From the NCBI GenBank assembly GCA_030614005.1, contig JAUWKS010000060.1, forward strand, positions 1 through 19,171: DNA of 19,171 nt, read 5' to 3'. The stretch is from Candidatus Heimdallarchaeota archaeon. GTDB taxonomy: Archaea; Asgardarchaeota; Heimdallarchaeia; JABLTI01. The notes beneath the pieces are model-generated. The model was not told the origin of the DNA, made no database searches, and worked only from the letters and a program-made list of their open reading frames with translations. Each line of letters begins with the position of its first letter. Positions within the stretch are counted from its first letter, which is position 1. This document shows positions 152-19,171 of the stretch, piece by piece. The position numbers and the translations under genes are program-made.

Positions 152-262
152 CTAATTTTTCTCTCGAGTGCGTTTTTCTAATCAAAATATAATTATCATT
201 GAATAGTATTATTATACTCGATTTAATACTAAACGAATATATCAATTACGGTTCGATTATCG

Positions 263-1075: not shown

Positions 1076-1082
1076 TAAATTT

Positions 1083-1586: not shown

Positions 1587-1654
1587 CAGTTATACTTTTC
1601 AACTTGCTAATGAGGTAAAAGTAGTTTGCTTTTTTATATGTTTCTTCTCTGTTC

Positions 1655-1903: not shown

Positions 1904-1974
1904 AATAGTTTATAGTAAAGATTATAATTTATAATTTACGCTTTAAAAACGAAAGTCATTATTGGTGATTAATT

Positions 1975-3210: not shown

Positions 3211-3240
3211 TACTAGACTATATTATTATTCGAATCAACG

Positions 3241-4305: not shown

Positions 4306-4327
4306 GAAGCACAAGGTGAATTAAGAA

Positions 4328-5017
4328 ATGCCAGAGAAAAAACATTCTTTTGACTATGTTATAAAATTTGGTGGATCAATTACTGAAAGAGGGTCCATTC
4401 AGCAAATTGAATCCATTGGTAGAATTTTAGCTGAAATTTTTGCCCTCAAAAAGAATTTTGTTATTGTTCCAGGTGGTGGTTCCTTTGCTGAAGAAGTTAG
4501 AAGAATGCAAAATAAATTTCATTTCAGTGATGAACAAGCTCATTGGATGGCTGTTTATGCAATGGAACAACATGCACTATTACTACAACATTTTATTCCT
4601 AAATCAAAAGTAATGCAATTCTCAAGTAAGCAGTCCCTCAATACAATACATAAATTCCAAGGAACACAAGTACCTATTTTCAGTGTTTTAGACTTTATGA
4701 AAAATGAAAGTAAATTAGGTCATAATTGGCATTGCTCTAGTGATGCCATCGCTTCTGAAATCGCTTCTAAACTAAATATACAAAAGATTATTTTCGTAAA
4801 GGATGTAGATGGTCTCTTCATTGATAATTCATTTGTTGAAGAAATAAAATTGGAAGATTTAGTACTACTCGATGATTCTCCAATTGACAAAACAGCACCG
4901 ATTATTCTTAAAAACAATCTAATTGAAGCAGTAATAGTTAATGGATTCTACCCAGAAAGAATAAAAGACCTACTAATGTTTATGAAAGAGATAATAGGTA
5001 CCAAAATACTATTGTAA
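4328..5017 (+). CDS. mfnE: Amino-acid-kinase-fold protein, MfnE-like ([5-(aminomethyl)furan-3-yl]methyl phosphate kinase)
   Basis: VIKFGGS, VPGGGSFAEEVR, AHWMAVYAMEQ, WHCSSDAIA and KDVDGLF motifs; SD GGTGA upstream; 22 bp after mfnF. Confidence 0.85.
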   Translation: MPEKKHSFDYVIKFGGSITERGSIQQIESIGRILAEIFALKKNFVIVPGGGSFAEEVRRMQNKFHFSDEQAHWMAVYAMEQHALLLQHFIPKSKVMQFSSKQSLNTIHKFQGTQVPIFSVLDFMKNESKLGHNWHCSSDAIASEIASKLNIQKIIFVKDVDGLFIDNSFVEEIKLEDLVLLDDSPIDKTAPIILKNNLIEAVIVNGFYPERIKDLLMFMKEIIGTKILL

Positions 5018-5082
5018 CAAAAAATAGCATAATCCACAATAATTTTATGCAAGTGAACTGTACAAATCAAGGAGATTAAACA

Positions 5083-5814
5083 ATGAGTCAAATTGCTAGA
5101 GTTAAAACAGGCATTCCTGGTTTAGATAAAATGCTAAATGGTGGTTTACCAAAAGGTAGAACTATACTCTTAAGTGGACCTGCAGGTGCAGGAAAAACAA
5201 CTCTTGCCACACAATTTATTTACAAAGGAGTTTTAGACTATGGAGATCCCGGGATTTACGTTACTTTTGATGAAGATCCCAAAACTGTCAGGCAAAATTT
5301 TTCTGGTTTCGGTTGGAAAATACAAAGCTTAGAAAAAGAAAACTTGTTAGCTTTAGTGGACGGATTTTCAATGAGAGCAGGTGTTGCCTCAAAAGAGAAA
5401 TATAGTATACGACTTGAAATTGATGACCTCCTAACGACACTTATTGCTCTTATAGATGAATTAGGAGCAGAGCGAGTTGTTATTGATTCTTTAACTGCTC
5501 TAGCAATCTCCCTAGAAAGCGAACTTAGAATTAGAAGGGAAATTCTGAAATTAAGTGCAGTTATGTCCAGTCTAAAATGCACTACAATTGTAACAAGTGA
5601 AATGAGCCAAAGTGGTGAAATTTCTCGCTATGGTGTTGAAGAATTCATGGCTTCTGGTGTTATTGTATTAGATATTCAAGAAGTCAATCAAAGATTGATG
5701 AGAAGCATTTACATTAGAAAGATGAGAGGAATTAATCACGAACTTATTCGCAGACCATTTATGTTATCAGGAGATGGTTGTATTGTCCTTTCCTCTGAAA
5801 CATTATATATGTAA
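5083..5814 (+). CDS. Single-domain KaiC/RAD55-like RecA-superfamily ATPase
   Basis: KTGIPGLDKMLNGGLP, Walker A GPAGAGKT, Walker B RVVIDS, GVEE and RKMRG; GGAG SD upstream. Confidence 0.9.
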   Translation: MSQIARVKTGIPGLDKMLNGGLPKGRTILLSGPAGAGKTTLATQFIYKGVLDYGDPGIYVTFDEDPKTVRQNFSGFGWKIQSLEKENLLALVDGFSMRAGVASKEKYSIRLEIDDLLTTLIALIDELGAERVVIDSLTALAISLESELRIRREILKLSAVMSSLKCTTIVTSEMSQSGEISRYGVEEFMASGVIVLDIQEVNQRLMRSIYIRKMRGINHELIRRPFMLSGDGCIVLSSETLYM

Positions 5815-5819
5815 CGAGA

Positions 5820-5842
5820 ATAATTGGATGAACTCCAATTAT
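5820..5842 (+). terminator. Perfect 9-bp inverted repeat just after the KaiC-like stop; candidate terminator or operator
   Basis: ATAATTGGA-TGAAC-TCCAATTAT, 5 nt after the stop codon. Confidence 0.45.
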
Positions 5843-5872
5843 CCTTCAATTTAATTTCTAATAAATCTATTA

Positions 5873-6076
5873 ATGGTTGGAGAAAATATGTTCACAAAAG
5901 ATTCTAAGGTAGATGAAAAAGATCTGGTTTTAATTGAAACTCAAAATATCCAAGAGAAATGTGGAGGATGTGGAGAACAATTAATCATCAAAATTTTTTG
6001 GTCAAAAGATGGAGACCAGCAAAAAATTGAATGTACTAAATGTGGATTAAGTATCTGGAAAAGCATGAAAAAATGA
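5873..6076 (+). CDS. Small zinc-ribbon protein
   Basis: Two Cys pairs, CGGC and CTKC. The real start may be ATG 5888, which follows a GGAG motif. Confidence 0.75.
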   Translation: MVGENMFTKDSKVDEKDLVLIETQNIQEKCGGCGEQLIIKIFWSKDGDQQKIECTKCGLSIWKSMKK

Positions 6077-6097
6077 TTGGTAAAGCTATTGGCCTAA

Positions 6098-6478
6098 TTA
6101 CTTCTCTCTTTTCTCAACAACAATTAGTTTTGATAGTTTCAATTCTTTGAATATCTCTAACCCTTTAGTTATTTTTCCGACAATATTCATCTCTTGATAT
6201 GGACGAACATCGTCATATATTATGTGAACTGATTTGCCCATTGGAGCGTAACAGATCTCTCCTGGCTTTACGTCCTGTGTTGGTCTCTCAGCTTTCACTT
6301 GAAAATTAACTTGAAAATACGCATGAGCATTATCTTGTGAACGAATACGACTTGTTATTGGTAATGCATACCAGATTTCCTCTGCTGAATGCGGAGCTTT
6401 TATTCTAATAAGCTCACCTTCTGCCTCTCCAACACCTTCAATTTTGAACTTAAGAGGATAAACTTCTAACTTACTCAT
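6098..6478 (-). CDS. Cyclophilin-like-fold protein (DUF369/TM1367-like)
   Basis: APHSAEEIWYALP, GEICYAPMGKSVHIIY and VGKIT pattern; SD GGTGA 7 nt before ATG. Confidence 0.75.
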   Translation of the reverse strand: MSKLEVYPLKFKIEGVGEAEGELIRIKAPHSAEEIWYALPITSRIRSQDNAHAYFQVNFQVKAERPTQDVKPGEICYAPMGKSVHIIYDDVRPYQEMNIVGKITKGLEIFKELKLSKLIVVEKREK

Positions 6479-6535
6479 TTATTGTCACCGAAAAAGTATT
6501 CGTTATCTTAATAAAAAAACTTTCTAAGAATGAAT

Positions 6536-6613
6536 TGGTGCCCCAACCGGGATTTGAACCCGAGTCTACAACTCGAAAGGCTGTAATGATTGGCCGAACT
6601 ACACCATTGGGGC
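6536..6613 (-). tRNA. trnE: tRNA-Glu(TTC), intronless, CCA encoded
   Basis: Reverse complement folds: acceptor GCCCCAA/TTGGGGC, anticodon stem ACAGC/GTTGT with loop CT-TTC-GA, T-arm TCGGG-TTCAAAT-CCCGG, then A-CCA. Confidence 0.97.
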
Positions 6614-6652
6614 AAATAGTTAAACAATACTTTTTTTCAAGGGATTATCTGG

Positions 6653-6667
6653 TTTTAAATCTTTCTT
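6653..6667 (-). promoter_or_regulatory. Putative BRE/TATA promoter of tRNA-Glu
   Basis: Minus strand reads AAGAAAG-A-TTTAAAA about 40 nt upstream of G1. Confidence 0.5.
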
Positions 6668-6729
6668 GAAGTTGCAAAAATTAGCATTTCGGCTTATTTC
6701 TGTGGAATTAATTAAAAAAGAATAAACAG

Positions 6730-6751
6730 GCAGCAGGTTAAAACCTGCCGC
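6730..6751 (-). terminator. GC-rich hairpin plus U-rich tract downstream of the solute-binding-protein gene
   Basis: Minus strand GCGGCAGGT-TTTA-ACCTGCTGC (9 bp, one G-U), followed by CTGTTTATTCTTTTTT; 22 nt after the stop. Confidence 0.6.
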
Positions 6752-6773
6752 AAGTTAAGTTGTATCAGGATAT

Positions 6774-8639
6774 TTACTTTCTCTTCTTAACAATAAGGAA
6801 TGAAGCGGATGCTACAGTCATTATTGATACGAATGCAATCAATAAACCGAATCCAGGTGTGCCTCCTGTTGTAGTAATTTCGTAACCTGCATAGGCCATG
6901 AATTCTCGTGCTAAGTCAAGATTGTGGTTGTATCGAATAATGTTTGGATTACACCAGATTCCCATCTTTAAGTAGATTGGATGATCTGTGAGGGTGTATT
7001 CACCTCTGTGAATAACATTATTGATTTCAACTCTATCAAGAGCGTAAGAGATAGCTTTTCTGATAGCTAAACCAACTGTCATTGAAGCATCGCCAGGAGC
7101 GTCATCAGGGTTGCCGATAACTGGTCTGACTGGGCGCATGTTATAACCGAAGAAACCAAAGTAGAATGTAGTATCATTTTGGACATTAAAGTCTGGGTCA
7201 GCGATCATTTCATCACGTTTCTCTGGGAATTGTGTAACTCCTTCGAGATCGGTTTTACCTGCCTCAAATTCTAATAAAGCGGTTTGTTGGTCTGGGATAA
7301 TTCTAATTCTCCAAGTGTCTAATCCACCAGTGAAGTCACCAAATCTGTTTTCAAAGTCTAATCCGGTTTTGGATACAGAGTCGTCTAACCACCAGCAGTC
7401 ATCGAATACGTTTAATTCTGTTTCAACACCTTCGGTGAAGGTACCAAGTTGGAATAATCCAGTTCCGAAACAACTTGTTGCGAATTTATTCCATGAAGCA
7501 TCAGTGATGTCTGGAGTAATTCCATCGGCTAATTGTGTTTGATTCAAGTAATGCTCTGGGAGAATTCTTGTAGATAAGTAGGTAACAGCGGGTGCAAAAG
7601 CATCATTTACTTCTGTTAATGGATCACCATCAATGTAAATTCTCATAGTTGTAGAGTCTACAATTTCCAATTTCTTGATCCAATCGTAATTGGCTACATC
7701 ATTGGAAACAGTTGCCCATGCGGATATAGTAAAGTAAACATCTTCAGCATCAAATTCTTCTCCTGGGAATAATCCATCTGGATCATCTTGCCATTTAATT
7801 CCATCACGAGTGACGATTTCAATGGTTGTATCATTGATGAACTCATAACTTTCAGCTAAGTGTGGGTGAACGCTTAAATCAGCGTCATAGAAAATTAGTG
7901 TGTCCATTGTAGCTGTACTGATTGTACTTGATGATTGATCATCTTGGAACAATGGGTTAAGATCTGACCAGGCTGCGTCAGTTGTGACAACTTCTGAGTC
8001 AACAATTTGACCATCATGAAGGGCTGAAAAACTCATTTTACCCCATGATTGTTTTAGACCGTCGGTCATATCATAGCCATCTAGTGTGGCCCAAATGGAG
8101 ACATAAACTTTTGGTGCGAATGTTGGTTGACATGGTAAAATTTTATCCATTAAATATTGTTCCCATGCCCAGTAATGTTGAACTCTTTCAGTACTGTCGG
8201 GAGGCATAATTAGGTTGCCTTGTTTCATATACCACTCGTTTAAACCAGTACCGAGGGTTTCATTGTAATCCATATCGGTATGGTAACCAAACAAGTTTAG
8301 AGAACCATTTTCGTTAAAGACACCAGTAAAGTCTGGGTCTGCACCGCCACCAGTGAGAGCGACATAACAAATATCGAAATCTCGGTAAGCGATCAATTCA
8401 CCAACAAAAGTTGGCCAATCTTGTACAATAACATCAACGTTTATTCCTATTCTTGCTAGATGTTGTTTGAGGAAGTTACCATAATCTGGTCTAACTCCTC
8501 CACCATTTGTTTTGAAGACCAAAGTAAAGAATGGGTCTACAGCGTTAGTTTTTGCTGGTTGTACAGCAATGGCACTAACTGCAAATAGTGATAGAATAAC
8601 ACCTACAAGAATTGTGGTTTTAACTTTATTCATTTTCAT
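6774..8639 (-). CDS. ABC transporter solute-binding protein, family 5 (OppA/DppA/NikA-like); circularly permuted; N-terminal signal peptide and C-terminal PGF-CTERM-type anchor
   Basis: Family-5 motifs DLNP, PHLAESY, GIKWQD, GTGLF, AGKTD, IRKAISYALDR, LAREFMAYAG and LARIGINV..DW. Start placed at ATG 8639 (SD GGTGA 7 nt upstream) rather than 8669. C-terminus TTTGGTPGFGLLIAFVSIMTVASASFLIVKKRK. Confidence 0.88.
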   Translation of the reverse strand: MKMNKVKTTILVGVILSLFAVSAIAVQPAKTNAVDPFFTLVFKTNGGGVRPDYGNFLKQHLARIGINVDVIVQDWPTFVGELIAYRDFDICYVALTGGGADPDFTGVFNENGSLNLFGYHTDMDYNETLGTGLNEWYMKQGNLIMPPDSTERVQHYWAWEQYLMDKILPCQPTFAPKVYVSIWATLDGYDMTDGLKQSWGKMSFSALHDGQIVDSEVVTTDAAWSDLNPLFQDDQSSSTISTATMDTLIFYDADLSVHPHLAESYEFINDTTIEIVTRDGIKWQDDPDGLFPGEEFDAEDVYFTISAWATVSNDVANYDWIKKLEIVDSTTMRIYIDGDPLTEVNDAFAPAVTYLSTRILPEHYLNQTQLADGITPDITDASWNKFATSCFGTGLFQLGTFTEGVETELNVFDDCWWLDDSVSKTGLDFENRFGDFTGGLDTWRIRIIPDQQTALLEFEAGKTDLEGVTQFPEKRDEMIADPDFNVQNDTTFYFGFFGYNMRPVRPVIGNPDDAPGDASMTVGLAIRKAISYALDRVEINNVIHRGEYTLTDHPIYLKMGIWCNPNIIRYNHNLDLAREFMAYAGYEITTTGGTPGFGLLIAFVSIMTVASASFLIVKKRK

Positions 8640-8681
8640 TAGGTGATCACCAAAAATATTTCGGTTCAACCTTATAATAGT

Positions 8682-8737
8682 CTAGATCCTTGCGAATCTA
8701 GTGCCCAAAGGTTTAGAGCACTAAACTAATTAGTTTA
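8682..8737 (-). promoter_or_regulatory. Structured leader/operator region of the solute-binding-protein gene
   Basis: Perfect 16-bp palindrome TAAACTAATTAGTTTA (8722-8737) plus overlapping stems including CTAGATTC-GCAA-GGATCTAG (8682-8701), between a TATA-like box (8745-8754) and the start codon. Confidence 0.5.
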
Positions 8738-8789
8738 CATTGTCATTTAAAAAAGTTTTTGTCATTGTTAAAAATAGTATTTAATAGTC

Positions 8790-8869
8790 TTTTAGAGACA
8801 ATTAATCTAAAATAGTTAGAACGTTTAAAAATGTTTCTAGGGACAGTTTCCACTCCAGTTCTAGAGACA
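8790..8869 (+). repeat. Three short direct repeats, consensus TTYTAGRGACA
   Basis: TTTTAGAGACA 8790-8800, TTCTAGGGACA 8835-8845 and TTCTAGAGACA 8859-8869, in the divergent intergenic region. Confidence 0.5.
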
Positions 8870-9005
8870 GAACAGCAAAGCTAGTAACTATATTTATGCA
8901 GGTATTTGTGCTTTTAAGTGTAATTTATCATAATTAGTATCTAGGAATAAAATAAATAATCCCAACCCATATTATATTGTATGAAATTGCAAATAGGTTA
9001 GCATC

Positions 9006-9260
9006 TTGAGTGAAAAATTACAGAACAAATTTATCGAGAAATTTGAAGGACAGCTTATTCTTAAAGCAAAAGGTATGTCAAATAGTGAATTACGCGATGC
9101 CTTACTTGAAGTAAGAAAATCAAATAGAATGGAAGAAAATGAATCAGGAAACAGATTGGATATAGATTCTCAAAAGGATCTTTTAATGGAAGGGGTGTAC
9201 TCTCAAGAGCTAAAACATAGAGAGCTTTTAGAGTGGGCATTAAAGTCAGGAAAAAAATAA
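9006..9260 (+). CDS. Hypothetical small helical protein
   Basis: 84-aa ORF with TTG start and charged, protein-like composition; fills the gap and converges on the next gene. No family recognised. Confidence 0.65.
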   Translation: MSEKLQNKFIEKFEGQLILKAKGMSNSELRDALLEVRKSNRMEENESGNRLDIDSQKDLLMEGVYSQELKHRELLEWALKSGKK

Positions 9261-9273
9261 GCAAACATTCTAA

Positions 9274-10092
9274 TTAATTGGAACCTTCTTTTTGATTAAC
9301 CTCAGCTATTTTTTCATCTTGCATTTGTTGATCGTTTATGATGCTAGCACTTGAATTTTGTAAGGGAGAAGTTTGATTGCTTGATATTACTTTACTGAAG
9401 TCTTGTGTAATATCTTTCCAGCCAGGGCATTCATCATAGTTAGCCTTCCATTCACATTCTTCACAAGTTTTCTCCATATCTTTTCCTCGATGAAGGCTTA
9501 GCAAAACCATTGCACCTATAAGAAGAACACCTGCGGCTATTTTGAATGTCCAATGTTGTGAAAAGATAACTGCAATTAAAAATCCAGCAAATGCACCCCT
9601 ACTAAATTTATAGATATCATTGATGAAAAGAGAATATTTTCGTAATAGCAATGCTAAGGCTCCCGTAACACCAAACCCAATAGTAAACCACCAAAGATTA
9701 GGTATCCATAATCCTGTTGCAGTAAGAAAACTTCTTGCATCCAACCAGAATATAAATATCAAAACTGTAGCATACAATGGGGGATAACTTAAGGTACAAC
9801 CTCTGCAGAGACGAATTTTACCTATTTTAAAAACATGGTCGTTAAAAGTTTCACATTCAGGATGATGAGCGAGGGTCATAGAAATTACATTCCACGAAAA
9901 AAATAGTTTGATAAAATCAACTATAGTTTTCATTCTGGCTTTTCGTTTTTCCTTTTTTTCTGTAGGATCCCTTTGCTCAGAAGATGGGTTTATCTTTTGT
10001 ATTTCTTGTTTTTGTACCAAATCTGGAGAAATGGTTGAAGTAGCCACTAAATCAGTTTGGTTAGTATCTTGTTGATTGTTTTCGAGGGGCAT
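9274..10092 (-). CDS. Membrane protein with DUF2085-like His/Cys motif and a second Cys cluster
   Basis: HHPEC...HVFKIGKIRLCRGC, then about 4-5 hydrophobic segments, then CEECEWKANYDECPG; low-complexity Q/N/S-rich termini. Confidence 0.7.
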   Translation of the reverse strand: MPLENNQQDTNQTDLVATSTISPDLVQKQEIQKINPSSEQRDPTEKKEKRKARMKTIVDFIKLFFSWNVISMTLAHHPECETFNDHVFKIGKIRLCRGCTLSYPPLYATVLIFIFWLDARSFLTATGLWIPNLWWFTIGFGVTGALALLLRKYSLFINDIYKFSRGAFAGFLIAVIFSQHWTFKIAAGVLLIGAMVLLSLHRGKDMEKTCEECEWKANYDECPGWKDITQDFSKVISSNQTSPLQNSSASIINDQQMQDEKIAEVNQKEGSN

Positions 10093-10187
10093 ATAATGAA
10101 TCTCCCAATTTGCACTCCATTAAGGAAAGTGAATCAAGTAATAAAAAACTAGATTAATATTTATTAGTATTGTTTTAGATTAACTGA

Positions 10188-11168
10188 TTGGATGTGAGTG
10201 CAATATCAACCAAAGAAGATAGAAAAATAGTACTGTTATCAGGAGGAACCGGAACACCAAAATTGATTCTAGGTTTGAGGGAGTTTATACTTGATGAATC
10301 ATTTACGATTATTGGAAACACAGGGGATGATGATGAGTTTTATGGATTATTAGTTTCACCTGATATTGATACACTACTCTATCTTTTCACCGGAACTTTA
10401 GATTTGAAGAAATTCTGGGGATTAGAAAATGAATCATATGTTGCTATGAGTCAACTAACAACAATGAAAGAAGAAACTTGGTTTCGACTTGGTGACAAGG
10501 ATCTTGGTTTACATTTATTGAGGAATAAACTCCTACTTAGGGGGTGGAAAGTAACTGCTATTGTTTCAGAGATTTGTAATAGACTTGGAATAAAAGCAGA
10601 AATAATGCCAATGTCAAATGAACCAGTCCGGACAGTATTATTTGATTCACTCGGTTCTAAATATAGTTTTCAGGAGTATACTGTAAAAACGAAGGAGACT
10701 CCAATAATAGCAAAAGTTGAATATGAAGGTGCAGAAAAAGCTAACATTACTCCAGAAATGAAAAAAACTATTGCTAATAGTTCTACTATTATTATTGGAC
10801 CAAGTAACCCAATTACAAGCATTGGACCTATGTTGGCTATTAAAGAATTAAAAGACGCATTGATACAAACACGAGCGACAATTATCGCGGTATCACCTTT
10901 TGAAGGGGAAACAGCTTTCAGTGGTCCCGCAGCAAAATTAATGGTAACAGTGCATCATAAACCAAATGCTTATGGAGTAGCAAAATTATACAAAGATTTT
11001 CTTGATATAATTATCATAAGTGAAAAAGATAAGAAGTTAATTCCGAAAATAGCCAAACTTGGAATTAGAGCTATTTGTGCAAATATCTCACTAAAAACAC
11101 AACAAGAAAGAAAAAATTTTGCTGAAAAGATTTTGAGTATTATTACTGACAATGAGAACAAAATTTAG
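10188..11168 (+). CDS. cofD: 2-phospho-L-lactate transferase (F420 biosynthesis)
   Basis: LSGGTGTPKL, GNTGDD, SPDIDTLLY, WFRLGDKDLGLH, FQEY, IIGPSNPITSIGPML and FSGPAAKLM motifs. Confidence 0.92.
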   Translation: MDVSAISTKEDRKIVLLSGGTGTPKLILGLREFILDESFTIIGNTGDDDEFYGLLVSPDIDTLLYLFTGTLDLKKFWGLENESYVAMSQLTTMKEETWFRLGDKDLGLHLLRNKLLLRGWKVTAIVSEICNRLGIKAEIMPMSNEPVRTVLFDSLGSKYSFQEYTVKTKETPIIAKVEYEGAEKANITPEMKKTIANSSTIIIGPSNPITSIGPMLAIKELKDALIQTRATIIAVSPFEGETAFSGPAAKLMVTVHHKPNAYGVAKLYKDFLDIIIISEKDKKLIPKIAKLGIRAICANISLKTQQERKNFAEKILSIITDNENKI

Positions 11169-11220
11169 ATTCAAATCAAATAGGAAATATCTATCCTAGT
11201 CTTTCAGTTAATTGATTAGA

Positions 11221-12315
11221 TCAAGGTATTATTTCGCAACCATTGTTATATCCAGGATAATCAAAATCTTGTTTAGAAATAATTCCTACTTCAATTAGTT
11301 GCAAAACTTCTTTTTTAATTCCGCTCAATTCTTTGAGGAGATGTTTCACTGTGCTGCACACCTTAGTAAAACCTGCTTCACCCCATAATTTTGTTTTATT
11401 AATAAATAGACATCTACCACCGCAGTATTCAAAATCATCACATTGTGGACATGGATCTTCAACTTTCATAGAATTGTAAATCGACTCTGGGGTACTTTGT
11501 TTAATATCACCAACAAGAGAGAATTTGAACTCAGGCGATATTGGGCACACAGAAATCGTTCCATTGGGATTTATTGCAAAAGAATCAATACCTGCACCAC
11601 ATCTAATTGTACTGGGCAAATCGTAAAGAATAGATTTCATTAATGGAATGAATGGAACTAAACCAAAAACTATTCCTTTTTTCATATGCTCTAACCACCA
11701 CGAAACTAGGCGAGTTATTCCTGGATTATACGAAGTATCTACCCAGCTATCGAAATCACTCCATCGAGCGTGGGGGTCATCATCCCATTGACTATCAATT
11801 TGCCAGTGAATATGATCAAAAGTTGGTTTTTTGAGTGATGCCAAATGAGTAACTTCTAGATAAATATCTGAAACCTCAGAAACAGCCATCCGAGCAACTA
11901 AATCACTGGTGAAACCATTATCTCGAGTTGTACGACAATTATCAAGTACTTTAGTGTAATTCCCCGTTCCACGATTACTATCATTGATTTCTTGGCGCCC
12001 ATCTATTGAAATCAGAATAGCACTCATCCGTTTGAGATATTTGGATTTTACATTGTGGAGAAAAGTAGCATTTGTTTGCACGGACCAATGGCGGACATTT
12101 GGTATCGAATCCATAATTTCTTCCATAAGAGAGATCCTCAAAAGTGGCTCTCCACCATAAAACTGAATGGTTATATTCTCATCTCGAGACAAAAATGATT
12201 TTAGAACTTCTATAGGATAAGCAATATCAATTGGGGGTTCTTCAAAAGTAGCATCTTCTCCACAATATTTGCAATGAAGATTACAAGCACGAGTAAGAAT
12301 AACAAAGTAGTTCAT
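11221..12315 (-). CDS. Radical SAM/SPASM-domain protein, resembling the archaeal AF0577 (TIGR04084) family
   Basis: CNLHCKYC radical SAM motif, FYGGEPLL, ISIDG; SPASM cysteines CGAG..VCP..CPQC..CGGRC..C; C-terminal NNGCEIIP. Confidence 0.85.
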   Translation of the reverse strand: MNYFVILTRACNLHCKYCGEDATFEEPPIDIAYPIEVLKSFLSRDENITIQFYGGEPLLRISLMEEIMDSIPNVRHWSVQTNATFLHNVKSKYLKRMSAILISIDGRQEINDSNRGTGNYTKVLDNCRTTRDNGFTSDLVARMAVSEVSDIYLEVTHLASLKKPTFDHIHWQIDSQWDDDPHARWSDFDSWVDTSYNPGITRLVSWWLEHMKKGIVFGLVPFIPLMKSILYDLPSTIRCGAGIDSFAINPNGTISVCPISPEFKFSLVGDIKQSTPESIYNSMKVEDPCPQCDDFEYCGGRCLFINKTKLWGEAGFTKVCSTVKHLLKELSGIKKEVLQLIEVGIISKQDFDYPGYNNGCEIIP

Positions 12316-12393
12316 TTAGCATACCAAGAGGAAATTTGTTACCATTTGTCTTTAATAATTTCAGTTCAATAATTACCATATTAATTAAAGCTT

Positions 12394-12879
12394 CTAAGAT
12401 TCCAAATCTGCTAATATATCCACAGAGGATTTTTGGTTATCATCACTGATTTTATCCTCCAAGTAGGTTTCGTATAACTCTCCTTCACCACGATCTTGCT
12501 TCAAATACCGGTAATAAGCGCCAGTTATTAACCCGCCAATAGGTCCACCCACTATACCTGTGAGCATTATTGCTCCAGAAAAAACCATGAAGAAAAAGGG
12601 CCCGAATGCTATGTTTAAACTTTGGATATCATGATAAAACCAAAATAAAGGGATAAGCACTAAACCCAAAATAAAACTTGCAGGAATGCTAACAACGAAT
12701 CCATCATACATACAATTAATCATCGGTCTTTTCCTTTTGATTCCAACAAAAATACCGCCTACTACACCAGAAAAAAATAATGATGGAATAAGCAATGAAA
12801 GCATTTCAAAAGAAAGTGAAAATATTATACCTAATACTAAAATCACGAAAGCACCAATAAATAATGTTTGAAGACGCAA
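12394..12879 (-). CDS. Hypothetical membrane protein (about 4 TM, Gly-rich helices, acidic tail)
   Basis: Four hydrophobic segments with GxxxG-type motifs (GVVGG, GGPIGG) and an acidic C-terminus; TTG start; same strand as the radical SAM gene. Confidence 0.7.
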   Translation of the reverse strand: MRLQTLFIGAFVILVLGIIFSLSFEMLSLLIPSLFFSGVVGGIFVGIKRKRPMINCMYDGFVVSIPASFILGLVLIPLFWFYHDIQSLNIAFGPFFFMVFSGAIMLTGIVGGPIGGLITGAYYRYLKQDRGEGELYETYLEDKISDDNQKSSVDILADLES

Positions 12880-13184
12880 TTCAATCAGTCCTTAATGTAA
12901 GCATTAATTTACAAGCTGTAATTATAAAATATCTGTTTAGACAAATAATTAATTAAAACAGCAGGTTTTTCTTATAAAATGAAGAATAATCCTTTTTATA
13001 TAGCAAAGATGAAAGTCCAATAACGCTCATTGTATCTATTTCTTGCGTCAAACGTCAGTGTTAATAGACCTCCAAAAAGTTGCCTCGGACATTGAAACAA
13101 AAGAACTAAATAATACATCGGTTAAGCTATATTAACTAAGATAGTTTATATTCAATTATCCCGGGGGATTGCAAAGCAAAAACC

Positions 13185-13193
13185 TTATAAATA
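13185..13193 (+). promoter_or_regulatory. TATA box upstream of the winged-helix gene
   Basis: TTATAAATA preceded by A-rich BRE-like GCAAAAACC, about 77 nt before ATG 13270. Confidence 0.5.
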
Positions 13194-13269
13194 GAATTCA
13201 AATGTGCAAAACATAGAAACTAATTAAACATTAGGTACTAATAAAAAAAAAGGATGGCAGTGAAGAACA

Positions 13270-13716
13270 ATGATCACTGAATTATTAAACAGCTCAATAA
13301 AAGAACGAGAAGCAAGAATCAGACTTTCTGTTGAAAAGAAGAAAGGGACTAGAGGAAGAAAGAGAAGTAAGAAGACCATTAGAGTTCAAGAACTTATATT
13401 AGATACTTTATTCGTTAGTTGTAGACTAATGAGATCCTCCGAAATAAGAATAGCCGTAGGAAAGCGAGTAAAGGGTTTAAGCAACTATCTATTCTTCTCT
13501 GCACTAAGAGACCTTCAAACAAGAGGAGATATCGTAAAGCGAAAAAATCTTCTAAATATGAAATATACTTTTTACGCTCTCTCAAATATTGAAAGGCATA
13601 AAAGACAAGCATTCAGCTATCCAACGACCCAGATAAGCAATGTGCAAATAGAATATCGAACAACACTTCCCTATACTATGGAAGGGTTATTGTTGATGCC
13701 TCGATTCTTCTGGTAA
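13270..13716 (+). CDS. Putative winged-helix DNA-binding protein with very basic N-terminal segment
   Basis: VQELILDTL...MRSSEIRIAV...LFFSALRDLQTRGDIVKR..YTFYAL follows a wHTH helix/wing pattern; KKKGTRGRKRSKK basic patch. Confidence 0.6.
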   Translation: MITELLNSSIKEREARIRLSVEKKKGTRGRKRSKKTIRVQELILDTLFVSCRLMRSSEIRIAVGKRVKGLSNYLFFSALRDLQTRGDIVKRKNLLNMKYTFYALSNIERHKRQAFSYPTTQISNVQIEYRTTLPYTMEGLLLMPRFFW

Positions 13717-13741
13717 AAAGAAATTCACACAATAATAATCA

Positions 13742-13762
13742 GGCTGCGCAAAGAGTGCAGCC
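13742..13762. terminator. GC-rich hairpin between convergent wHTH and GTPase genes
   Basis: GGCTGCGC-AAAGA-GTGCAGCC (8 bp, one G-U on +) in an otherwise AT-rich spacer. Confidence 0.55.
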
Positions 13763-13826
13763 AATTCATTCATTTTAATGGAAGGAAGGAGAAACATTTT
13801 TTCTCAGTTTAGAAACATAAAGAGAA

Positions 13827-14513
13827 TTATTGATCGTTTATTTGATTAATCAAAACCCTCAATGGTAGTTGGAAACATTCGGGATCTTTAATAGTTGTTT
13901 CAAAAACTTCATATTCATTTCTTGTTGCTGTGCGAGCAAAATCTCCACCTAGATAAAGTCCTTTTGCAGAAAGGTCTTGTTTATTCATAAAAATAATTAC
14001 TGGAATTTGTATTCCAGATCGGATTTCTTCATGTTTTATTTTTTCAATATAGTAATTTAGGTATTCAATGGAAGAAACATTGGAACCATCTGCAAGCAAA
14101 ATAACAGCATCAGAACCTTTGAGACAAATTTCAGCCATAAAATCAAAACGTTCTTGACCTGCAGTATCAAATATTGAAAAAGTCATGAAACTATCAATAT
14201 CATCTCGAGATAGAAGATTATCAACGCCATCATTAATATCCATAATTTCGAATTGATTGCTTTTGGTGAAGATAACCATTGCACCTAATTGATTCATACT
14301 GACAGTTGTGGTTGATTCTTCAACATCTATTGGAGTATAAGTAAGATTAGCTTTGCCTTCAAGATAATCTTGTCTTTTTACATCTGAAACCACAAAGTCA
14401 TCACCAAAGAGTGATCGTAAGAACGAAGTTTTTCCGGATCCTGATGTTCCAAGAACGGTTATTTTCATTAAGCGGGAAACTTTTCCTTCCCGTAAAAGCT
14501 CGGCAACTGTCAA
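13827..14513 (-). CDS. Small GTPase, Ras superfamily (Rab/Arf/MglA-like)
   Basis: G1 GTSGSGKT, G2 STTTVSM, G3 DTAGQERF, G4 NKQD, G5 ETT. Start is uncertain: TTG 14513 has a GGAG SD 8 nt upstream; ATG 14579 and ATG 14468 are alternatives. Confidence 0.9.
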   Translation of the reverse strand: MTVAELLREGKVSRLMKITVLGTSGSGKTSFLRSLFGDDFVVSDVKRQDYLEGKANLTYTPIDVEESTTTVSMNQLGAMVIFTKSNQFEIMDINDGVDNLLSRDDIDSFMTFSIFDTAGQERFDFMAEICLKGSDAVILLADGSNVSSIEYLNYYIEKIKHEEIRSGIQIPVIIFMNKQDLSAKGLYLGGDFARTATRNEYEVFETTIKDPECFQLPLRVLINQINDQ

Positions 14514-14639
14514 TTTTATAACTCCAATATAATCTAATAACTCGGCAATAATATACAAGTTAACAATATCTAATATCATTTAAAGAGAATGTGAAGAAAA
14601 TATTCGGGGGGTCTAGTAAAACTATCAGCAGGTTTTTGT

Positions 14640-14657
14640 CGGAAAGGAGTTTTTCCG
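14640..14657. promoter_or_regulatory. Inverted repeat CGGAAA-N6-TTTCCG in the GTPase/tRNA-Gly divergent region
   Basis: Read directly from the sequence; regulator unknown. Confidence 0.3.
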
Positions 14658-14748
14658 TAAAAAAGAGAAAAAATAACAATTCTGCTAATTCAAATGTGCT
14701 TTCGAATAATATCAATTAATAAGAACACTATGAAAAATCCACATTTGG

Positions 14749-14762
14749 CGAAAGCTTTAAAG
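14749..14762 (+). promoter_or_regulatory. BRE/TATA promoter of tRNA-Gly
   Basis: CGAAAG-C-TTTAAAG, about 32 nt upstream of G1. Confidence 0.55.
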
Positions 14763-14792
14763 GTAAAAAAAAGTGAAAAAAAAACAACAAAT

Positions 14793-14901
14793 GCACTGAT
14801 GGTCTAGTAGTTATCTCTCGCGTTGAGTAACTGGACAGACTGGTCTAGGACTCCAGCCTTCCAAGCTGGGTACCCGGGTTCAAATCCCGGTCGGTGCACC
14901 A
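14793..14901 (+). tRNA. trnG: tRNA-Gly(TCC) with a 31-nt BHB intron (14808-14838) at position 15/16; CCA encoded
   Basis: Acceptor GCACTGA/TCGGTGC; D-stem GTCT/GGAC; anticodon arm CCAGC-CT-TCC-AA-GCTGG; T-arm CCGGG-TTCAAAT-CCCGG; A-CCA. The extra 31 nt in the D-loop fold as a bulge-helix-bulge. Confidence 0.93.
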
Positions 14902-14941
14902 TTCAATTCATTTCTCAAAGCATACACTCATTCATTCATAC

Positions 14942-14974
14942 TAATCTAAAAATAGTTAGAGAAGAATTTTAAAA
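14942..14974 (+). promoter_or_regulatory. Candidate operator TAATCTAAAAATAGTTAGA plus BRE/TATA of the nitroreductase gene
   Basis: TCTAA..TTAGA dyad, then GAAGAA-TTTTAAAA about 30 nt before the TTG start, consistent with a leaderless mRNA. A near-identical motif occurs at 8803-8820. Confidence 0.45.
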
Positions 14975-15002
14975 GTGACGAAACATCAATTACTAGATTA
15001 CT

Positions 15003-15899
15003 TTGAAAATTGTTGCTATTGATTATGAAAAGTGCATTGATTGCCTAAAATGCATCCAAGTCTGCCCGAGCAGATTGTATTTAGAAACGAAAAACAAAAA
15101 CAATAAGATAACAGCACAGTTTGCTGATCCATATGGTATTTGTATTCGATGTGGGCACTGTATAGCAATTTGTCCTACTGAAGCGATAAAGTACAGTAAT
15201 GCAGATCAACCTTTTGATATTGGGAAAGAAAAGAAACTGGATAAAATCGTTCCTTATGAAAATTTACTGAAAGTTATTCGTATGAGACGCTCAATGAGAG
15301 TGTACAAAAAAGAAGCAATCCCTAGAGATAAAATAGAAGCAATTTTGGAAGCGATGAGATATGCCCCGTCGGCAAGTAACAGACAAAATTGGCGATATAC
15401 GGTAGTGACTAATAAAAAAGAGATTGACAATTTATCAAAAGCAAGTTCGAGTTTTTTCCGAATAGCAAGAAAATTATTACCACTCAGATTTTTGGCTGTG
15501 CCTTTCCTCTCTGCAAGTGCAAGAAAGATGGTTTTAAATCCAAGCTCAAAGCTTCAATTAGATAATAATTTGAAAAGATTGGAAGAGGGAGAGGATGTTA
15601 TTTTCTTTGATGCACCATGTGTCATTATTATTTATGCACGCAAATATACTAAAAACCTCGCTGCAAATGATGCTGGTGTAGCATTAACACATGGTATGCT
15701 TGCAGCTCAAGCATTAGGATTGGGAACGTGTTGGATAGGTTTTGCCCAAAGAAAATTGAATGGTAGTCGTGGATTGAAAAAGCATTACAAAATTCCAAAA
15801 GGTTTCGACGTTTTAGGAGTAATTACTGTAGGAAAACCTGCAATGGAATATCAAAGGGGACCACCTAGAAGAAAATTACGAGTACAGTGGATAGAATGA
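15003..15899 (+). CDS. Nitroreductase-family protein with N-terminal 2x[4Fe-4S] ferredoxin domain
   Basis: CIDCLKCIQVCP and CIRCGHCIAICP; RRSMRVY, APSASNRQNW and ALGLGTCWIG nitroreductase motifs. Confidence 0.92.
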   Translation: MKIVAIDYEKCIDCLKCIQVCPSRLYLETKNKNNKITAQFADPYGICIRCGHCIAICPTEAIKYSNADQPFDIGKEKKLDKIVPYENLLKVIRMRRSMRVYKKEAIPRDKIEAILEAMRYAPSASNRQNWRYTVVTNKKEIDNLSKASSSFFRIARKLLPLRFLAVPFLSASARKMVLNPSSKLQLDNNLKRLEEGEDVIFFDAPCVIIIYARKYTKNLAANDAGVALTHGMLAAQALGLGTCWIGFAQRKLNGSRGLKKHYKIPKGFDVLGVITVGKPAMEYQRGPPRRKLRVQWIE

Positions 15900-15945
15900 T
15901 TTGGTGTAGGAAAAATTTTAGCTAAAATAACTTGTTTAAACGAAA

Positions 15946-15965
15946 AAATCTTCACTCGAAGATTT
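15946..15965 (+). terminator. Perfect 8-bp hairpin downstream of the nitroreductase gene
   Basis: AAATCTTC-ACTC-GAAGATTT, 46 nt after the stop. Confidence 0.35.
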
Positions 15966-16125
15966 AAAATAGAAGAAAATTAATAGTATAAAGCTAAAAG
16001 GAAAGAATATCATCATTAGCTGATAAAGAATAAAAACTACTCAAACTTTTACGAGAAGTATAATTCTCAACAAATAAAAAAATGTTTTAAATTAGATAAT
16101 TTGAAACTGGATGGATGGATAAACT

Positions 16126-16611
16126 ATGATACCGATAAGCTTGATTCTAATTCAAATGGGAAAAAGTGGGTTGGAATTAGTTAGTGCATATCCAGAGAGC
16201 CTTCCAGAAAAAGAGCTCAATAAAATAGTTTTCAAGTGCATGCCTCTTGGCGCGGAAGATAAAGACTTTGTAACATTAACAGTGGAAAAAAGAATTATTT
16301 CCACTTTTATTTTTGCTATAAAAGGAAAATCACGAAATAACATAGGAGCACTAACAGCTGTCTTTGTAACAGCAGAATACAAACCACAAATCCTTGAGCG
16401 TTTGTTTTCCTATACAATTAATGAATTGAAAAAGAAAAAACTGCTAACTATTGATTTGTTGTCAGAAATTTTACCAAAGTTATACAATGGAATAATTGAT
16501 GGAAAATATAAGATTGAAATTAATTCTGAGGTAACTTTGGAATATCAAGAGGATCAAAAAAACGAAGAGAAAAACTCTTTTGATTCTTTTGGAGATGATG
16601 TTTGGAATTAA
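16126..16611 (+). CDS. Hypothetical protein, longin/uDENN-like
   Basis: GLELVSAYP...IVFKCMPLG...DF followed by beta-beta-alpha pattern resembles uDENN/longin N-terminal modules; acidic tail ending FGDDVWN. The coding call is secure; the fold call is a pattern match. Confidence 0.6.
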   Translation: MIPISLILIQMGKSGLELVSAYPESLPEKELNKIVFKCMPLGAEDKDFVTLTVEKRIISTFIFAIKGKSRNNIGALTAVFVTAEYKPQILERLFSYTINELKKKKLLTIDLLSEILPKLYNGIIDGKYKIEINSEVTLEYQEDQKNEEKNSFDSFGDDVWN

Positions 16612-16614
16612 AAT

Positions 16615-16646
16615 ACTAACTAGTTTTTCAATAAAAATGAGTTAGT
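16615..16646 (+). terminator. Imperfect AT-rich hairpin directly after the longin-like stop
   Basis: ACTAACT-AG-TTTTT-CAAT-AAAAA-TG-AGTTAGT. Confidence 0.3.
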
Positions 16647-16751
16647 TTATGTATTTTTCAAAAATTTTAAAGATACGAATACTAATTTAGAATTACTTAC
16701 TTGTGATGGAACACTTGTAGCAACATAAAGATATAAACTAGTAGAATCAGG

Positions 16752-17603
16752 ATGAATAATTATATGGCTCTTGGAACATTAGTTTGGTTTGTAGTAATCC
16801 TTTATGGTTTAACTGCAATTGGTGCATCAGTTTTTTGTATTATAATGATCACAAATTTCATCAAGAGAAGAACAGGTGGGACCGCCCTTCTGGCATGGGT
16901 TTATGGAAGTGTAGCAGTATTCCAAATCAATTCTATTGTGTATAATGTTTTAGGAAAAACAAACCCTTTATCAGTTGGGCATGCAATAACTCTTCTAATC
17001 TATATTATCAGCTCAGTACTAATCTTCTATTTCTTTTACATTTTTGCAAGCAGACATATCTTAAATGATAGTGATGTTGTTCGTTCACTTTTCAGCATTG
17101 TGATATTGGGAGTACCAGGAGCAATTATTGGTGTTTTAGGATTTGAGATGCTAACAGTTGAGGATCCCTCAAAGCTAATCTTTGTCCAGATATCAATTGA
17201 ATCTGGAACGGAATTACTGCAATATCAACCAACAATTATGATTTCATTGGTATTGTATACAATCATGCTTGTTCTGGTCCAAATGAGAATTATTATTAGT
17301 ATGATAATAAATTTAGTCAAACATAAAACAAAAGATCCCATACGAAGAAAGGGAATGCAATTTATTCTCATAGCAGTTCTTTTTCTCTTTTTCACGGTAT
17401 CCTTGACAGTGGTATTCACGATAGAAGGAATTGGTCCGGTTGTAATTATCTTAATATACATAATGAAATCAGCTGCTTTCATGATTAGTATTGTATTAAG
17501 CTATATCGGCTGGATTTTACCTGAAAGATTTAAGGTGAGAGTTAGGAACAAATGGATAAAAACTCAAGTAGAAAGTGAGAGTGAAGCTGAAAAAAGTATT
17601 TGA
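16752..17603 (+). CDS. 7-TM membrane protein, predicted N-out/C-in, function unknown
   Basis: Seven hydrophobic segments (about aa 8-36, 45-66, 77-99, 112-131, 162-188, 202-224, 229-256); basic loops KRR after TM1 and KHKTKDPIRRK after TM5; amphipathic PERFKVRVRNK after TM7. Confidence 0.8.
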   Translation: MNNYMALGTLVWFVVILYGLTAIGASVFCIIMITNFIKRRTGGTALLAWVYGSVAVFQINSIVYNVLGKTNPLSVGHAITLLIYIISSVLIFYFFYIFASRHILNDSDVVRSLFSIVILGVPGAIIGVLGFEMLTVEDPSKLIFVQISIESGTELLQYQPTIMISLVLYTIMLVLVQMRIIISMIINLVKHKTKDPIRRKGMQFILIAVLFLFFTVSLTVVFTIEGIGPVVIILIYIMKSAAFMISIVLSYIGWILPERFKVRVRNKWIKTQVESESEAEKSI

Positions 17604-18122
17604 TTTTGTTAAGCAATTGGATAACAAGCAAGTTCTGAAAGCGAAAGTTTTTAGATTTAGTGAAAGTTCATTTTTTAATCTCTTCCACGAAAGGAAGAAT
17701 GCCTTCAAGAGGTAATTCTTGTAAGCATTGTGGACATTTTCAAGGAGCAAACCTAAATCAGCCAAGTGACGATAATCAATTAAACTTTCGATATAGTTTT
17801 GTAGGCCAGCGGAAATTTTCGCTATTGTTTTCAAATAGCTCTGAATGAATTTCGGTTCCGAATACCAAGTAGTAGATGTAATATGAGTTAAACTGGGTAA
17901 GAATGGTATAAAATCAGGACCCACCTTGAGAATAATAGTTAATAAAGATAGCCGCTTCTTTTCAGATGGTGTTTCAAGAAAAAGCTTATTGAAAAGTATT
18001 GGTAATTCTTCGCTCTTTATTGGAAGGGCATCAATGACCCAACCATCTTTTATTTGTGAAACAGTACAAGCATCAGTATTTTCTATATTCAAAATAGGTG
18101 TAATTTTCTTATCGAGGCTCAC
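17517..18122 (-). CDS. Hypothetical alpha-helical protein (possibly HEAT/solenoid-like)
   Basis: 201-aa ORF, GTG start after purine-rich GGTAGGTTGAG, amphipathic Leu/Ile-rich helices. The last 87 bp overlap the 7-TM gene tail-to-tail. Confidence 0.6.
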   Translation of the reverse strand: MSLDKKITPILNIENTDACTVSQIKDGWVIDALPIKSEELPILFNKLFLETPSEKKRLSLLTIILKVGPDFIPFLPSLTHITSTTWYSEPKFIQSYLKTIAKISAGLQNYIESLIDYRHLADLGLLLENVHNAYKNYLLKAFFLSWKRLKNELSLNLKTFAFRTCLLSNCLTKSNTFFSFTLTFYLSFYPFVPNSHLKSFR

Positions 18123-18331
18123 AACTCAACCCTACCCGATAACATCAACCCAAATTAAAGAAAGGATAGAGAGCTATAAAAATTTTTCAGTAAAATAAAC
18201 ACAAAACTAATTGTTGGTGCTTAACAAACTATTTTTTCAATAAAAAAAACATTGTAGAAGTAAAAATAACAATCCTTTTAACTAGCTGATGGACATTAGA
18301 AGGTTGTAATATTATTACGAGAGGATTTAAG

Positions 18332-19171
18332 TTGAAACATAATAAAAAACTCTTATTGTTAATTGTGCTTTTATTTTTACCTATTTTTATAAAAAGTGGA
18401 GTAGATGCAACAACTGATAATTCAGATGAAAATCTTGAGATTCTAGCAATGGGCATAGCTCTTGACTGGTCGTATGATACTGGAGCGGTGATAATGAGAA
18501 GTTCCCCTAAAGTAGTAGATATCGATGCAGATGGAACTCTAGAAGTACTAATTTGTGCTACAAATGCTACATTACACTGTCTAAACGAAACGGGTGATTT
18601 GGAATGGTCGTTTAACACAGGAACAAGCGGATGGTTGTACAATACACCTGCAGTAGCCGATTTGGATGGAGATGGAACAATGGAAATTCTGGTAAGTGCC
18701 TATGATAGTAAATTATATTGCATCAGTCATACTGGCAGTTTGGAATGGTCTTATACTGCTGCAGCTGGTGGAAGTCAAGCTTCTCCTGCAATTGCAGATT
18801 TAGATGCAGATGGAACACTTGAGATTATCTTTGGAACAGATACATCAAGTAGAGTTTATTGTATCAATCATACAGGCGGACTAGAATGGTACTACACAGC
18901 AGGAAATTCAATTGCAGCTTCACCAGCAATAGCCGATTTAGACAATGACGGAATGCTAGAGGTACTTGTTGGGTCGCTTAGTGCTGATTTCCTTTGTATC
19001 AATTATACAGGTGGATTGGAATGGTCCTATTCAACTGGAGGAGCAATTTATTCTTCAGCTTCAGTGGCAGATCTAGACAACGATGGAAAACTAGAAATTG
19101 TTTTTGGTTCTCTAGATAAGTACGTCTATTGTCTGAATGGAACAGGAGCAAAAAACTGGTCATTTAATGCA
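18332..19171 (+). CDS. Secreted FG-GAP/VCBS-like (PQQ-type) beta-propeller repeat protein; runs off the right edge
   Basis: Missing from the ORF track because it has no stop in the window. TTG start after AGAGGA; signal peptide MKHNKKLLLLIVLLFLPIFIKSGVDA; five repeats of 45-47 aa of the form SPxxADLDxDGxLExx...LxCxNxTGxLEWSY. Confidence 0.9.
   Translation, partial: MKHNKKLLLLIVLLFLPIFIKSGVDATTDNSDENLEILAMGIALDWSYDTGAVIMRSSPKVVDIDADGTLEVLICATNATLHCLNETGDLEWSFNTGTSGWLYNTPAVADLDGDGTMEILVSAYDSKLYCISHTGSLEWSYTAAAGGSQASPAIADLDADGTLEIIFGTDTSSRVYCINHTGGLEWYYTAGNSIAASPAIADLDNDGMLEVLVGSLSADFLCINYTGGLEWSYSTGGAIYSSASVADLDNDGKLEIVFGSLDKYVYCLNGTGAKNWSFNA

Follow-up and report, generated by a model that had tools for sequence, protein, structure and literature searches.

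Origin and form of an interrupted tRNA-Gly(UCC) gene

How does a tRNA gene come to be interrupted in one archaeon when it is uninterrupted in near-identical strains, and does it still work? We address this with a tRNA-Gly(UCC) gene in a 19,171-nucleotide stretch from a Candidatus Heimdallarchaeota archaeon (GenBank assembly GCA_030614005.1, contig JAUWKS010000060.1, positions 1 to 19,171 of the forward strand), which we call the window and whose coordinates are used throughout. The host, here G000, is a Heimdallarchaeota metagenome-assembled genome (MAG) from marine or cold-seep sediment, 3.62 Mb in size with 33.5% G+C and 90% completeness. Its relatives are labelled Candidatus Heimdallarchaeota, in agreement with the "probable Asgard" origin proposed by an earlier reading made from the letters without database searches (the sequence-only reading). 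That reading had also described the gene, at 14793-14901 on the plus strand, as an otherwise intact tRNA-Gly with 31 extra nucleotides (nt) after G15, and the sequence bears this out, with the insert at 14808-14838. We find that the insert is very probably a real intron that is removed from the transcript, that it is young, and that it came with a foreign promoter and a new 5' exon. The parts of the gene are as follows.

14793-14799, plus strand, pairing with 14891-14897: acceptor stem, with one U-G pair
14793-14807, plus strand: 5' exon (tRNA positions 1-15), made of the 5' acceptor strand, U8, G9, the 5' D-stem strand GUCU, A14 and G15
14802-14805, plus strand: 5' D-stem strand GTCT, also the exon strand of the central helix of a bulge-helix-bulge (BHB) motif, pairing with 14833-14836
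14806-14808, plus strand: 5' bulge AGU, with a predicted cut after 14807; the junction agrees with the orthologues
14808-14838, plus strand: intron of 31 nt, which opens with the last (third) nt of the 5' bulge, continues with a 24-nt hairpin and GGAC, and closes with two nt of the 3' bulge
14837-14839, plus strand: 3' bulge AGA, with a predicted cut after 14838; its 3' side is closed by one pair
14839-14901, plus strand: 3' exon (positions 16-73) and encoded CCA, containing the match to the Rfam tRNA model
14860-14862, plus strand: anticodon TCC
14898 and 14899-14901, plus strand: discriminator A and encoded CCA

The 3' exon holds the rest of the D-loop with its GG, the 3' D-stem strand GGAC, a 4-nt variable loop and a standard T-arm, and the GGAC within the intron is a copy of this exonic D-stem strand. 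Once 14808-14838 is removed the cloverleaf is complete, with U8, A14, G18G19 and G15-C48 all in place.

The boundaries of the intron are set by comparison with relatives. The 109-nt gene, used as a query, found its counterpart in most of 60 related genomes. Seven congeneric species (G001, G003, G005, G006, G007, G009 and G010) and one member of the same family (G011) have intronless, syntenic Gly(UCC) genes. In these eight relatives the match begins at query base 45, window position 14837, and the intronless genes run from ...GGTCTAG directly into ACTGGTCTAGG, which is the predicted spliced junction; the cut sites and restored junction proposed by the sequence-only reading match them exactly. 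Both genes that flank the tRNA are kept around Gly(UCC) in the relatives, at 82-89% nucleotide identity in the closest species, and the loci are therefore orthologous.

13827-14579, minus strand: small Arf/Ras-type GTPase gene, 250 amino acids (aa)
15003-15899: ferredoxin/nitroreductase-type gene

The GTPase falls in the Arf/Ras/Roc families. Relatives that share 75-91% identity with it bear Heimdallarchaeota or Asgard labels, and most of them lack its first ~20 residues.

Over the 3' exon the gene matches those of G001, G005 and G010 at 100% identity, and the predicted mature tRNA is identical to the G010 gene and one nt away from that of G001. More distant relatives have no D-loop insert in Gly(UCC) either. 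Elsewhere in the class, three genomes of another family (G013, G045 and G047; L028-L030) carry a ~19-nt intron in this gene at the canonical position 37/38 and none in the D-loop; the same tRNA-Gly(UCC) is interrupted at different places in different lineages.

An AG ends the 5' exon and the intron alike, so that the DNA alone allows 13/14, 14/15 or 15/16 as the insertion point; among these three candidates the BHB geometry alone picks 15/16. No earlier listing of an intron at 15/16 turned up in the papers that could be searched. The call made by ARAGORN covers 14833-14901 only and that of the Rfam tRNA model 14841-14890 only (30.3 bits against a cut-off of 29). Standard callers thus mis-handle the gene, as the sequence-only reading had anticipated, and under annotation tools that miss such introns this MAG would appear to be without a decoder for the glycine codon GGA.

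The insert folds as a relaxed BHB

Every pair that the sequence-only reading listed for the insert exists. Four central pairs (G-C, U-A, C-G and U-G), formed by GUCU at 14802-14805 and GGAC at 14833-14836, stand between two 3-nt bulges on opposite strands, the arrangement that defines a BHB. Behind them, the inner helix comprises 5 base pairs (bp) (14809-14813 with 14828-14832), a one-base bulge and a further 3 bp (14815-14817 with 14825-14827). The outer helix is the single pair G14801-C14840, whereas a strict hBHBh' motif has both flanking helices. Because the 3' cut site is closed by one pair only, the motif is a relaxed BHB of the HBh'/BHL class. In 200,000 shuffled inserts with the exact boundaries fixed, four central pairs arose in 3.1%, and four central pairs together with an inner helix of at least 5 bp in 0.03%. 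The same build, with outer helices of 0-1 bp, recurs in the D-loop introns of tRNA-Trp and of a tRNA-His-like gene of G000 and in an allele of tRNA-Gly(GCC), all described below.

Alleles with and without the intron in near-identical strains

We compared four public DNA runs over the locus, among them X2 from a cold seep and X1 and X5 from marine sediment. A separately assembled Logan contig of X2 spans 14601-14893 with zero differences, so the intron allele is contiguous DNA. Contigs of X1 and X5 are identical to the window on both sides and have 94 other letters in place of 14682-14836. Contigs from three assemblies (L054, L055 and L056), recovered through a neighbouring GTPase (P0003) at 99% identity, extend this comparison: over 1.5-2.9 kb upstream their identity to the window is 99.86%, 99.85% and 99.35%, and downstream L054 is 99.56% identical over 1.8 kb. 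All three carry the genus-typical Gly(UCC) promoter and a 5' exon with C5, and no intron. Exact-protein look-ups with the window's own flanking genes and with a 536-aa gene on contig C85 of G000 gave no match.

The intron is therefore young, missing both in the seven congeneric species and in strains whose flanks are 99.4-99.9% identical. It is also not a clean 31-nt insertion: a 155-nt block of promoter, leader, 5' exon and intron replaced the native 94 nt. Of the picture of an intron in an otherwise normal gene that the sequence-only reading had drawn, the intron stands, whereas simple insertion does not, since promoter, leader and 5' exon were replaced with it. The block reads as follows.

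14682-14836, plus strand: segment that differs from the intronless allele, 155 nt here against 94 nt in near-identical strains
14678-14772, plus strand: promoter block, foreign to the locus and identical at 94 of 95 positions to the DNA upstream of Gly(GCC) on contig NODE_743 (below)
~14749-14761, plus strand, within the promoter block: element CGAAAGCTTTAAA, resembling a transcription factor B recognition element and TATA box (BRE/TATA-like)
14773-14792, plus strand: A-rich 5' leader that resembles neither of the leaders in the two alleles compared

The sharing of a promoter block between two glycine tRNA genes raises the possibility that the MAG's intron allele is a chimera made in assembly, with Gly(GCC)- and Gly(UCC)-type sequence joined through shared tRNA words. 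The two genes do share long identical stretches, the block does stand at both, and several runs have contigs of these loci that break off at the tRNA. We nevertheless consider such an artefact very improbable: the X2 contig runs unchanged through the left junction, the whole cassette and most of the 3' exon, and the leader and intron, found nowhere else in G000 or its relatives, cannot stem from mis-joined known pieces.

Is the gene needed, and is it spliced?

No second Gly(UCC) gene was found in the 90%-complete G000 assembly with ARAGORN, the Rfam model, BLAST or a pattern for the 5' end, a check that the sequence-only reading had called for. (An ARAGORN call of "tRNA-Gly(tcc)" on contig C37 proved to be a misread of another intron-bearing tRNA.) Of the glycine codons in 1,314 long open reading frames of G000, 38% are GGA, and the exons of the interrupted gene show no decay and keep their encoded CCA. 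Taken together, the lack of a second gene, the use of GGA and the undamaged exons argue for a working gene.

The host also has candidate enzymes for splicing. It encodes two full-length paralogues of the splicing endonuclease EndA and the ligase RtcB (579 bits). The alpha subunit (P0001) keeps the Tyr, His and Lys catalytic motifs and is closest to the enzymes of Sulfolobus tokodaii (2cv8) and Aeropyrum pernix (3p1z_B), at E ~1e-36, with that of Pyrobaculum aerophilum (2zyz_B) also similar; these are catalytic subunits of crenarchaeal heterotetramers. In an ungapped alignment its K75 falls on A. pernix K44, within the Crenarchaea-specific loop (CSL/L1). The beta subunit (P0002; G000:C9:74694-75182 region) is full length at 193 aa with N and C domains; Pro replaces its catalytic His while Tyr and Lys are kept, and its closest relative is the homotetrameric enzyme of Methanocaldococcus jannaschii. 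By these features it looks like a structural subunit. In vitro, cleavage of a D-loop intron by the A. pernix enzyme takes no other factors and depends on K44 (PMC3241643), and Asgard archaea have the (alpha-beta)2 type of EndA with the L1 loop (PMC5829648). By analogy with these systems, the host endonuclease should be able to cut relaxed and non-canonical motifs. This pair of subunits, an alpha with the loop lysine and a beta lacking the His, is what the sequence-only reading had asked to see typed, and it fits the broad-specificity endonuclease that it held necessary. Its further view, that non-canonical introns and relaxed BHBs occur mainly in TACK lineages, has been overtaken, as both the introns and the EndA type are already documented in Asgard archaea (PMC5829648; preprint 10.64898/2026.10.13.758758).

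A plausible course of maturation can be outlined. Transcription would start from the promoter ~35 nt upstream of the gene. In the precursor, the 5' D-stem strand GUCU would pair with the intronic GGAC in place of its usual partner. The 4-bp helix so formed would lie between a 3-nt bulge and a second bulge or loop of 3 nt, with the intron hairpin behind it. An (alpha-beta)2 EndA with its CSL/L1-bearing catalytic subunit may then cut after G15 (14807) and after 14838, and RtcB may ligate the exons to a tRNA of 75 nt plus CCA.

Several observations weigh against this account. The minimum free energy (MFE) fold of the precursor is not the BHB: RNAfold pairs 14801-14805 with 14837-14841 at -40.5 kcal/mol against -35.4 kcal/mol for the BHB conformer, so that the competing fold is ~5 kcal/mol better. 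With an outer helix of one pair, the 3' cut site lies effectively in a loop, and D-loop cleavage is slower even with a full BHB (PMC3241643). Another Gly(UCC) copy could lie outside the 90%-complete assembly. The intron allele occurs in one of the four runs only (X2), possibly the MAG's own sample, the other three being without cover over the intron; and the public runs that contain the stretch, from six studies of marine and cold-seep sediment, include no RNA run. We retain the BHB register despite the MFE because it alone gives the orthologue junction, and because the local MFE folds of the Gly(GCC) and Trp introns are the helix-bulge-helix itself.

An alternative is that the gene is a disrupted pseudogene in which the 31 nt stay, with the functional Gly(UCC) encoded in the unassembled 10%. 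MAGs often lose tRNA genes, G000 itself is without an assembled Gly(GCC) gene, and a weak outer helix and runs without RNA would be compatible with it. On the other hand, archaeal tRNA genes are mostly single-copy (PMC3293823), the exons are undamaged, promoter and CCA are present, excision yields the orthologue junction exactly, and the BHB geometry stands at the 0.03% chance level. We regard a pseudogene as improbable and hold to an excised intron.

The Gly(GCC) locus and the shared promoter block

The foreign promoter resembles that of the sister gene. The motif GCGAAAGCTTTAAAGG occurs twice in G000, in the window's promoter block and at a Gly(GCC) fragment on contig C85, and it marks the Gly(GCC) promoter in all congeners; the window block and these promoters of the genus are homologous. 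The Gly(GCC) locus itself exists in three states. In one assembly (L065/L070) it is an intact, intronless gene followed by a gene for a 152-aa protein. In the second state, as in G000 (C85:24112-24124), the native promoter and the first 13 nt of Gly(GCC) run into unrelated DNA. This truncation occurs in five independent assemblies (C85 and four others), so the fragment is real. The 3' part of Gly(GCC) was not found assembled in G000, where the rebuilt gene and the DNA after it are missing.

The third state is on a 19.9-kb contig (ENA ERZ25746585 NODE_743; L064:2349-2361, L069:1165-1379 and L072). Here the native promoter and 13-nt fragment are followed by 7,108 nt with five genes, and then by a second promoter, a leader, tRNA positions 1-15, a 31-nt intron, the remainder of Gly(GCC) and the 152-aa gene. 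The intron lies at position 15/16 and has the GUCU/GGAC central helix, a 10-bp hairpin with a UGCG loop, and no outer helix. Over the 95 nt upstream of the Gly(GCC) leader, NODE_743 matches window 14678-14772 at 94 positions, and the identity between it and the Gly(UCC) allele begins at an AATT common to both. Beyond the promoter block the two cassettes part: the leaders are unlike, 2 of the 15 exon bases differ, and 14 of the 31 intron bases match.

Searches of the five genes of the 7.1-kb insert against Pfam, PHROGs and PADLOC gave no match to an integrase, transposase, phage or defence family. One of them encodes a 353-aa protein (L072:351-1409, minus strand) whose C-terminal part, as read by eye with no family model matching, includes an R-N-x-x-x-H (…RKKRNEIFH…) resembling the motif of HEPN RNases. 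Its neighbours encode a TPR protein of 875 aa and a protein of 536 aa that weakly matches the prenyltransferase toroid.

Route of arrival

Two routes could have brought the cassette to Gly(UCC). In the first, the 161-nt unit at 14678-14838 would be the remnant right end of a larger insertion that landed in the D-loop and rebuilt the gene with its own promoter, a copy of the 5' exon and an intron-forming linker; the body of the element, the native promoter and the displaced 5' fragment would later have been deleted at the AATT microhomology. The undeleted form is what stands at Gly(GCC) of the same species on NODE_743, where the identity with the Gly(UCC) allele starts at that AATT; an intact, intronless gene occupies the same place in L065/L070, the displaced fragment is in five assemblies, and the pattern matches the model for tRNA-Thr of Caldiarchaeum (PMC3293823). 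Of the signs of an integrating element, a direct repeat formed by the tRNA 5' part flanks the insert at Gly(GCC) on NODE_743 and is lacking at Gly(UCC), and alleles with and without the intron coexist within the species at both genes. Against this route, the five genes of the 7.1-kb insert include no recombinase, integrase, transposase or other mobile-element hallmark, and G000 shows no displaced Gly(UCC) 5' fragment and, at this locus, no inserted genes. The two cassettes have also diverged in leader, 5' exon and intron despite a 99% identical promoter block, and a recent census of Asgard introns saw no general link between intron gain and mobile elements (preprint 10.64898/2026.10.13.758758). 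We therefore propose this route tentatively, as a possibility that falls short of even odds.

In the second, the intron-bearing 5' part would have been imported by recombination from an unsampled relative that had carried the intron longer, after which gene conversion inside the genome would have evened out the differences between the promoter block and the Gly(GCC) copy. The mosaic of the cassette, with a 99% identical promoter block beside a far more diverged leader and intron, is what this would leave. NODE_743 itself shows gene conversion between promoter copies, in that its displaced fragment has the leader of the module and not the native one, and the 3' exon, identical across the genus, offers a crossover site. 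Telling against import, the left junction shares 4 nt only, and no donor was found in the 60 relatives (at up to 3 mismatches), in viral contigs or in JGI metagenome contigs, the last searched with exon-anchored and intron-core patterns. The best exact match to the 31-nt intron in G000 is 13 nt (blastn-short). Outside tRNA sequence, 16 nt match exactly at G000:C87:8507, which we take for a chance hit. On this evidence import seems doubtful. Between the two we slightly prefer a remnant insertion.

Extending the preferred route to both genes, it is conceivable, though we would not bet on it, that the module of 95-nt promoter block, leader, tRNA positions 1-15 and 31-nt BHB-forming linker is the working end of insertions that target the D-loops of tRNA-Gly genes. 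Insertion would break the gene, the module would rebuild it as an intron-bearing gene under a new promoter, and deletion may then leave the module alone, as in the window. If so, D-arm introns of Asgard archaea would be repair patches left by integrating DNA, and the Gly(GCC) and Gly(UCC) alleles would be three stages present in one population: the intact gene, the insert with its fragment, and the cassette only.

Relation to known introns

The intron itself is an ordinary case of the non-canonical BHB introns already described in Asgard tRNA genes; what is new is the strain-level pair of alleles and the footprint of the intron's arrival, which can still be read. According to a preprint of October 2026 (10.64898/2026.10.13.758758), tRNAscan-SE misses no class of insert in Asgard genomes as often as those in the D-arm. 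It also reports that many gains lie on terminal branches, that they fall at BHB boundaries far more often than by chance, that two EndA paralogues are the rule, and that no general route of arrival was found. The window's intron agrees with those cases in being a D-arm insert missed by callers and found through a compact relative, in its gain on a terminal branch, in the host's two full-length EndA proteins, in a BHB of four central pairs with one flanking helix, and in having no paralogue in other tRNA genes. It differs in coming from a MAG of the Heimdall group, where that census concentrates on Jordiarchaeia and Atabeyarchaeia, in its polymorphism at strain level (flanks >99% identical), and in having arrived together with a replaced promoter and 5' exon. 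For the most part, intron gains are inferred from one species to another, whereas here the alleles differ in genomes >99% identical around the locus and the incoming sequence is still readable. That a promoter and a copied stretch of the first 15 bases of the gene accompanied the intron bears on how Asgard introns arrive, the question that the 2026 census left open. So does the sister Gly(GCC): it shares the promoter block, has an intron that matches in length and position, and retains a 5' fragment together with 7 kb of inserted DNA.

The closest parallel is tRNA-Thr(GGU) of Caldiarchaeum subterraneum (Sugahara et al. 2012, PMC3293823), where an allele with an extra non-canonical intron likewise stands beside an allele without it in one population, and where, as at Gly(GCC), a 5' fragment lies upstream of the insertion and the gene is rebuilt at its far end. 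The explanation proposed there was intron gain through integrating DNA followed by recombination. The insert in C. subterraneum is 1.8 kb with a putative recombinase beside the tRNA and the intron at 24/25; that at Gly(GCC) is 7.1 kb with no recognisable recombinase, and the window's Gly(UCC) differs from both in having the 155-nt cassette only, with no fragment and no insert.

In structure, the intron resembles those of A. pernix pre-tRNA-Thr(UGU) (PMC3241643) and, at 20b/21, Methanopyrus kandleri pre-tRNA-Glu (PMC5829648), D-loop introns whose BHB or relaxed HBh'/BHL motif is formed by exon and intron together and which are served by an (alpha-beta)2 EndA that bears the CSL/L1 loop with its conserved lysine (K75 here, K44 in A. 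pernix). Those two introns have been cleaved in vitro, and that of A. pernix also matured in vivo, whereas the Gly(UCC) intron, at 15/16, is described here from DNA. As far as PMC4090602 relates the work of Fujishima et al. (2010) on intron transposition in Thermoproteales, young non-canonical introns gained after species divergence are common ground, as is the occurrence of introns of equal length, build and position in two tRNA genes (here Gly-UCC and Gly-GCC). By the same account the Thermoproteales families have similar intron sequences, whereas the introns here share 14 of 31 nt and the conserved part is a promoter block outside the tRNA.

Other D-loop introns in the genome

The tRNA-Trp(CCA) gene (G000:C26:47294-47464; L044) has a 31-nt D-loop insert with a 10-bp hairpin and a GAAA loop, placed by its orthologues at 14/15 and forming three central pairs out of four only. 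It occurs in G000 and G001 (L045) only and is absent from six congeners (L046-L051). The gene also contains a long intron at 37/38 with CTGA and ATGATG motifs, which may be box C/D-like.

A tRNA-His(GUG)-like gene (G000:C64:3335-3436; L040) carries a 32-nt D-loop intron at 15/16. It has A73 and no encoded G-1, and no match to the Thg1 family was found in G000. Between G000 and G001 (L041) a U-A pair in the inner helix of this intron has become C-G, a compensatory change. A degenerate copy of the gene (G000:C94:20301-20402; L043) has two mismatches in the acceptor stem and GA for GG in the D-loop.

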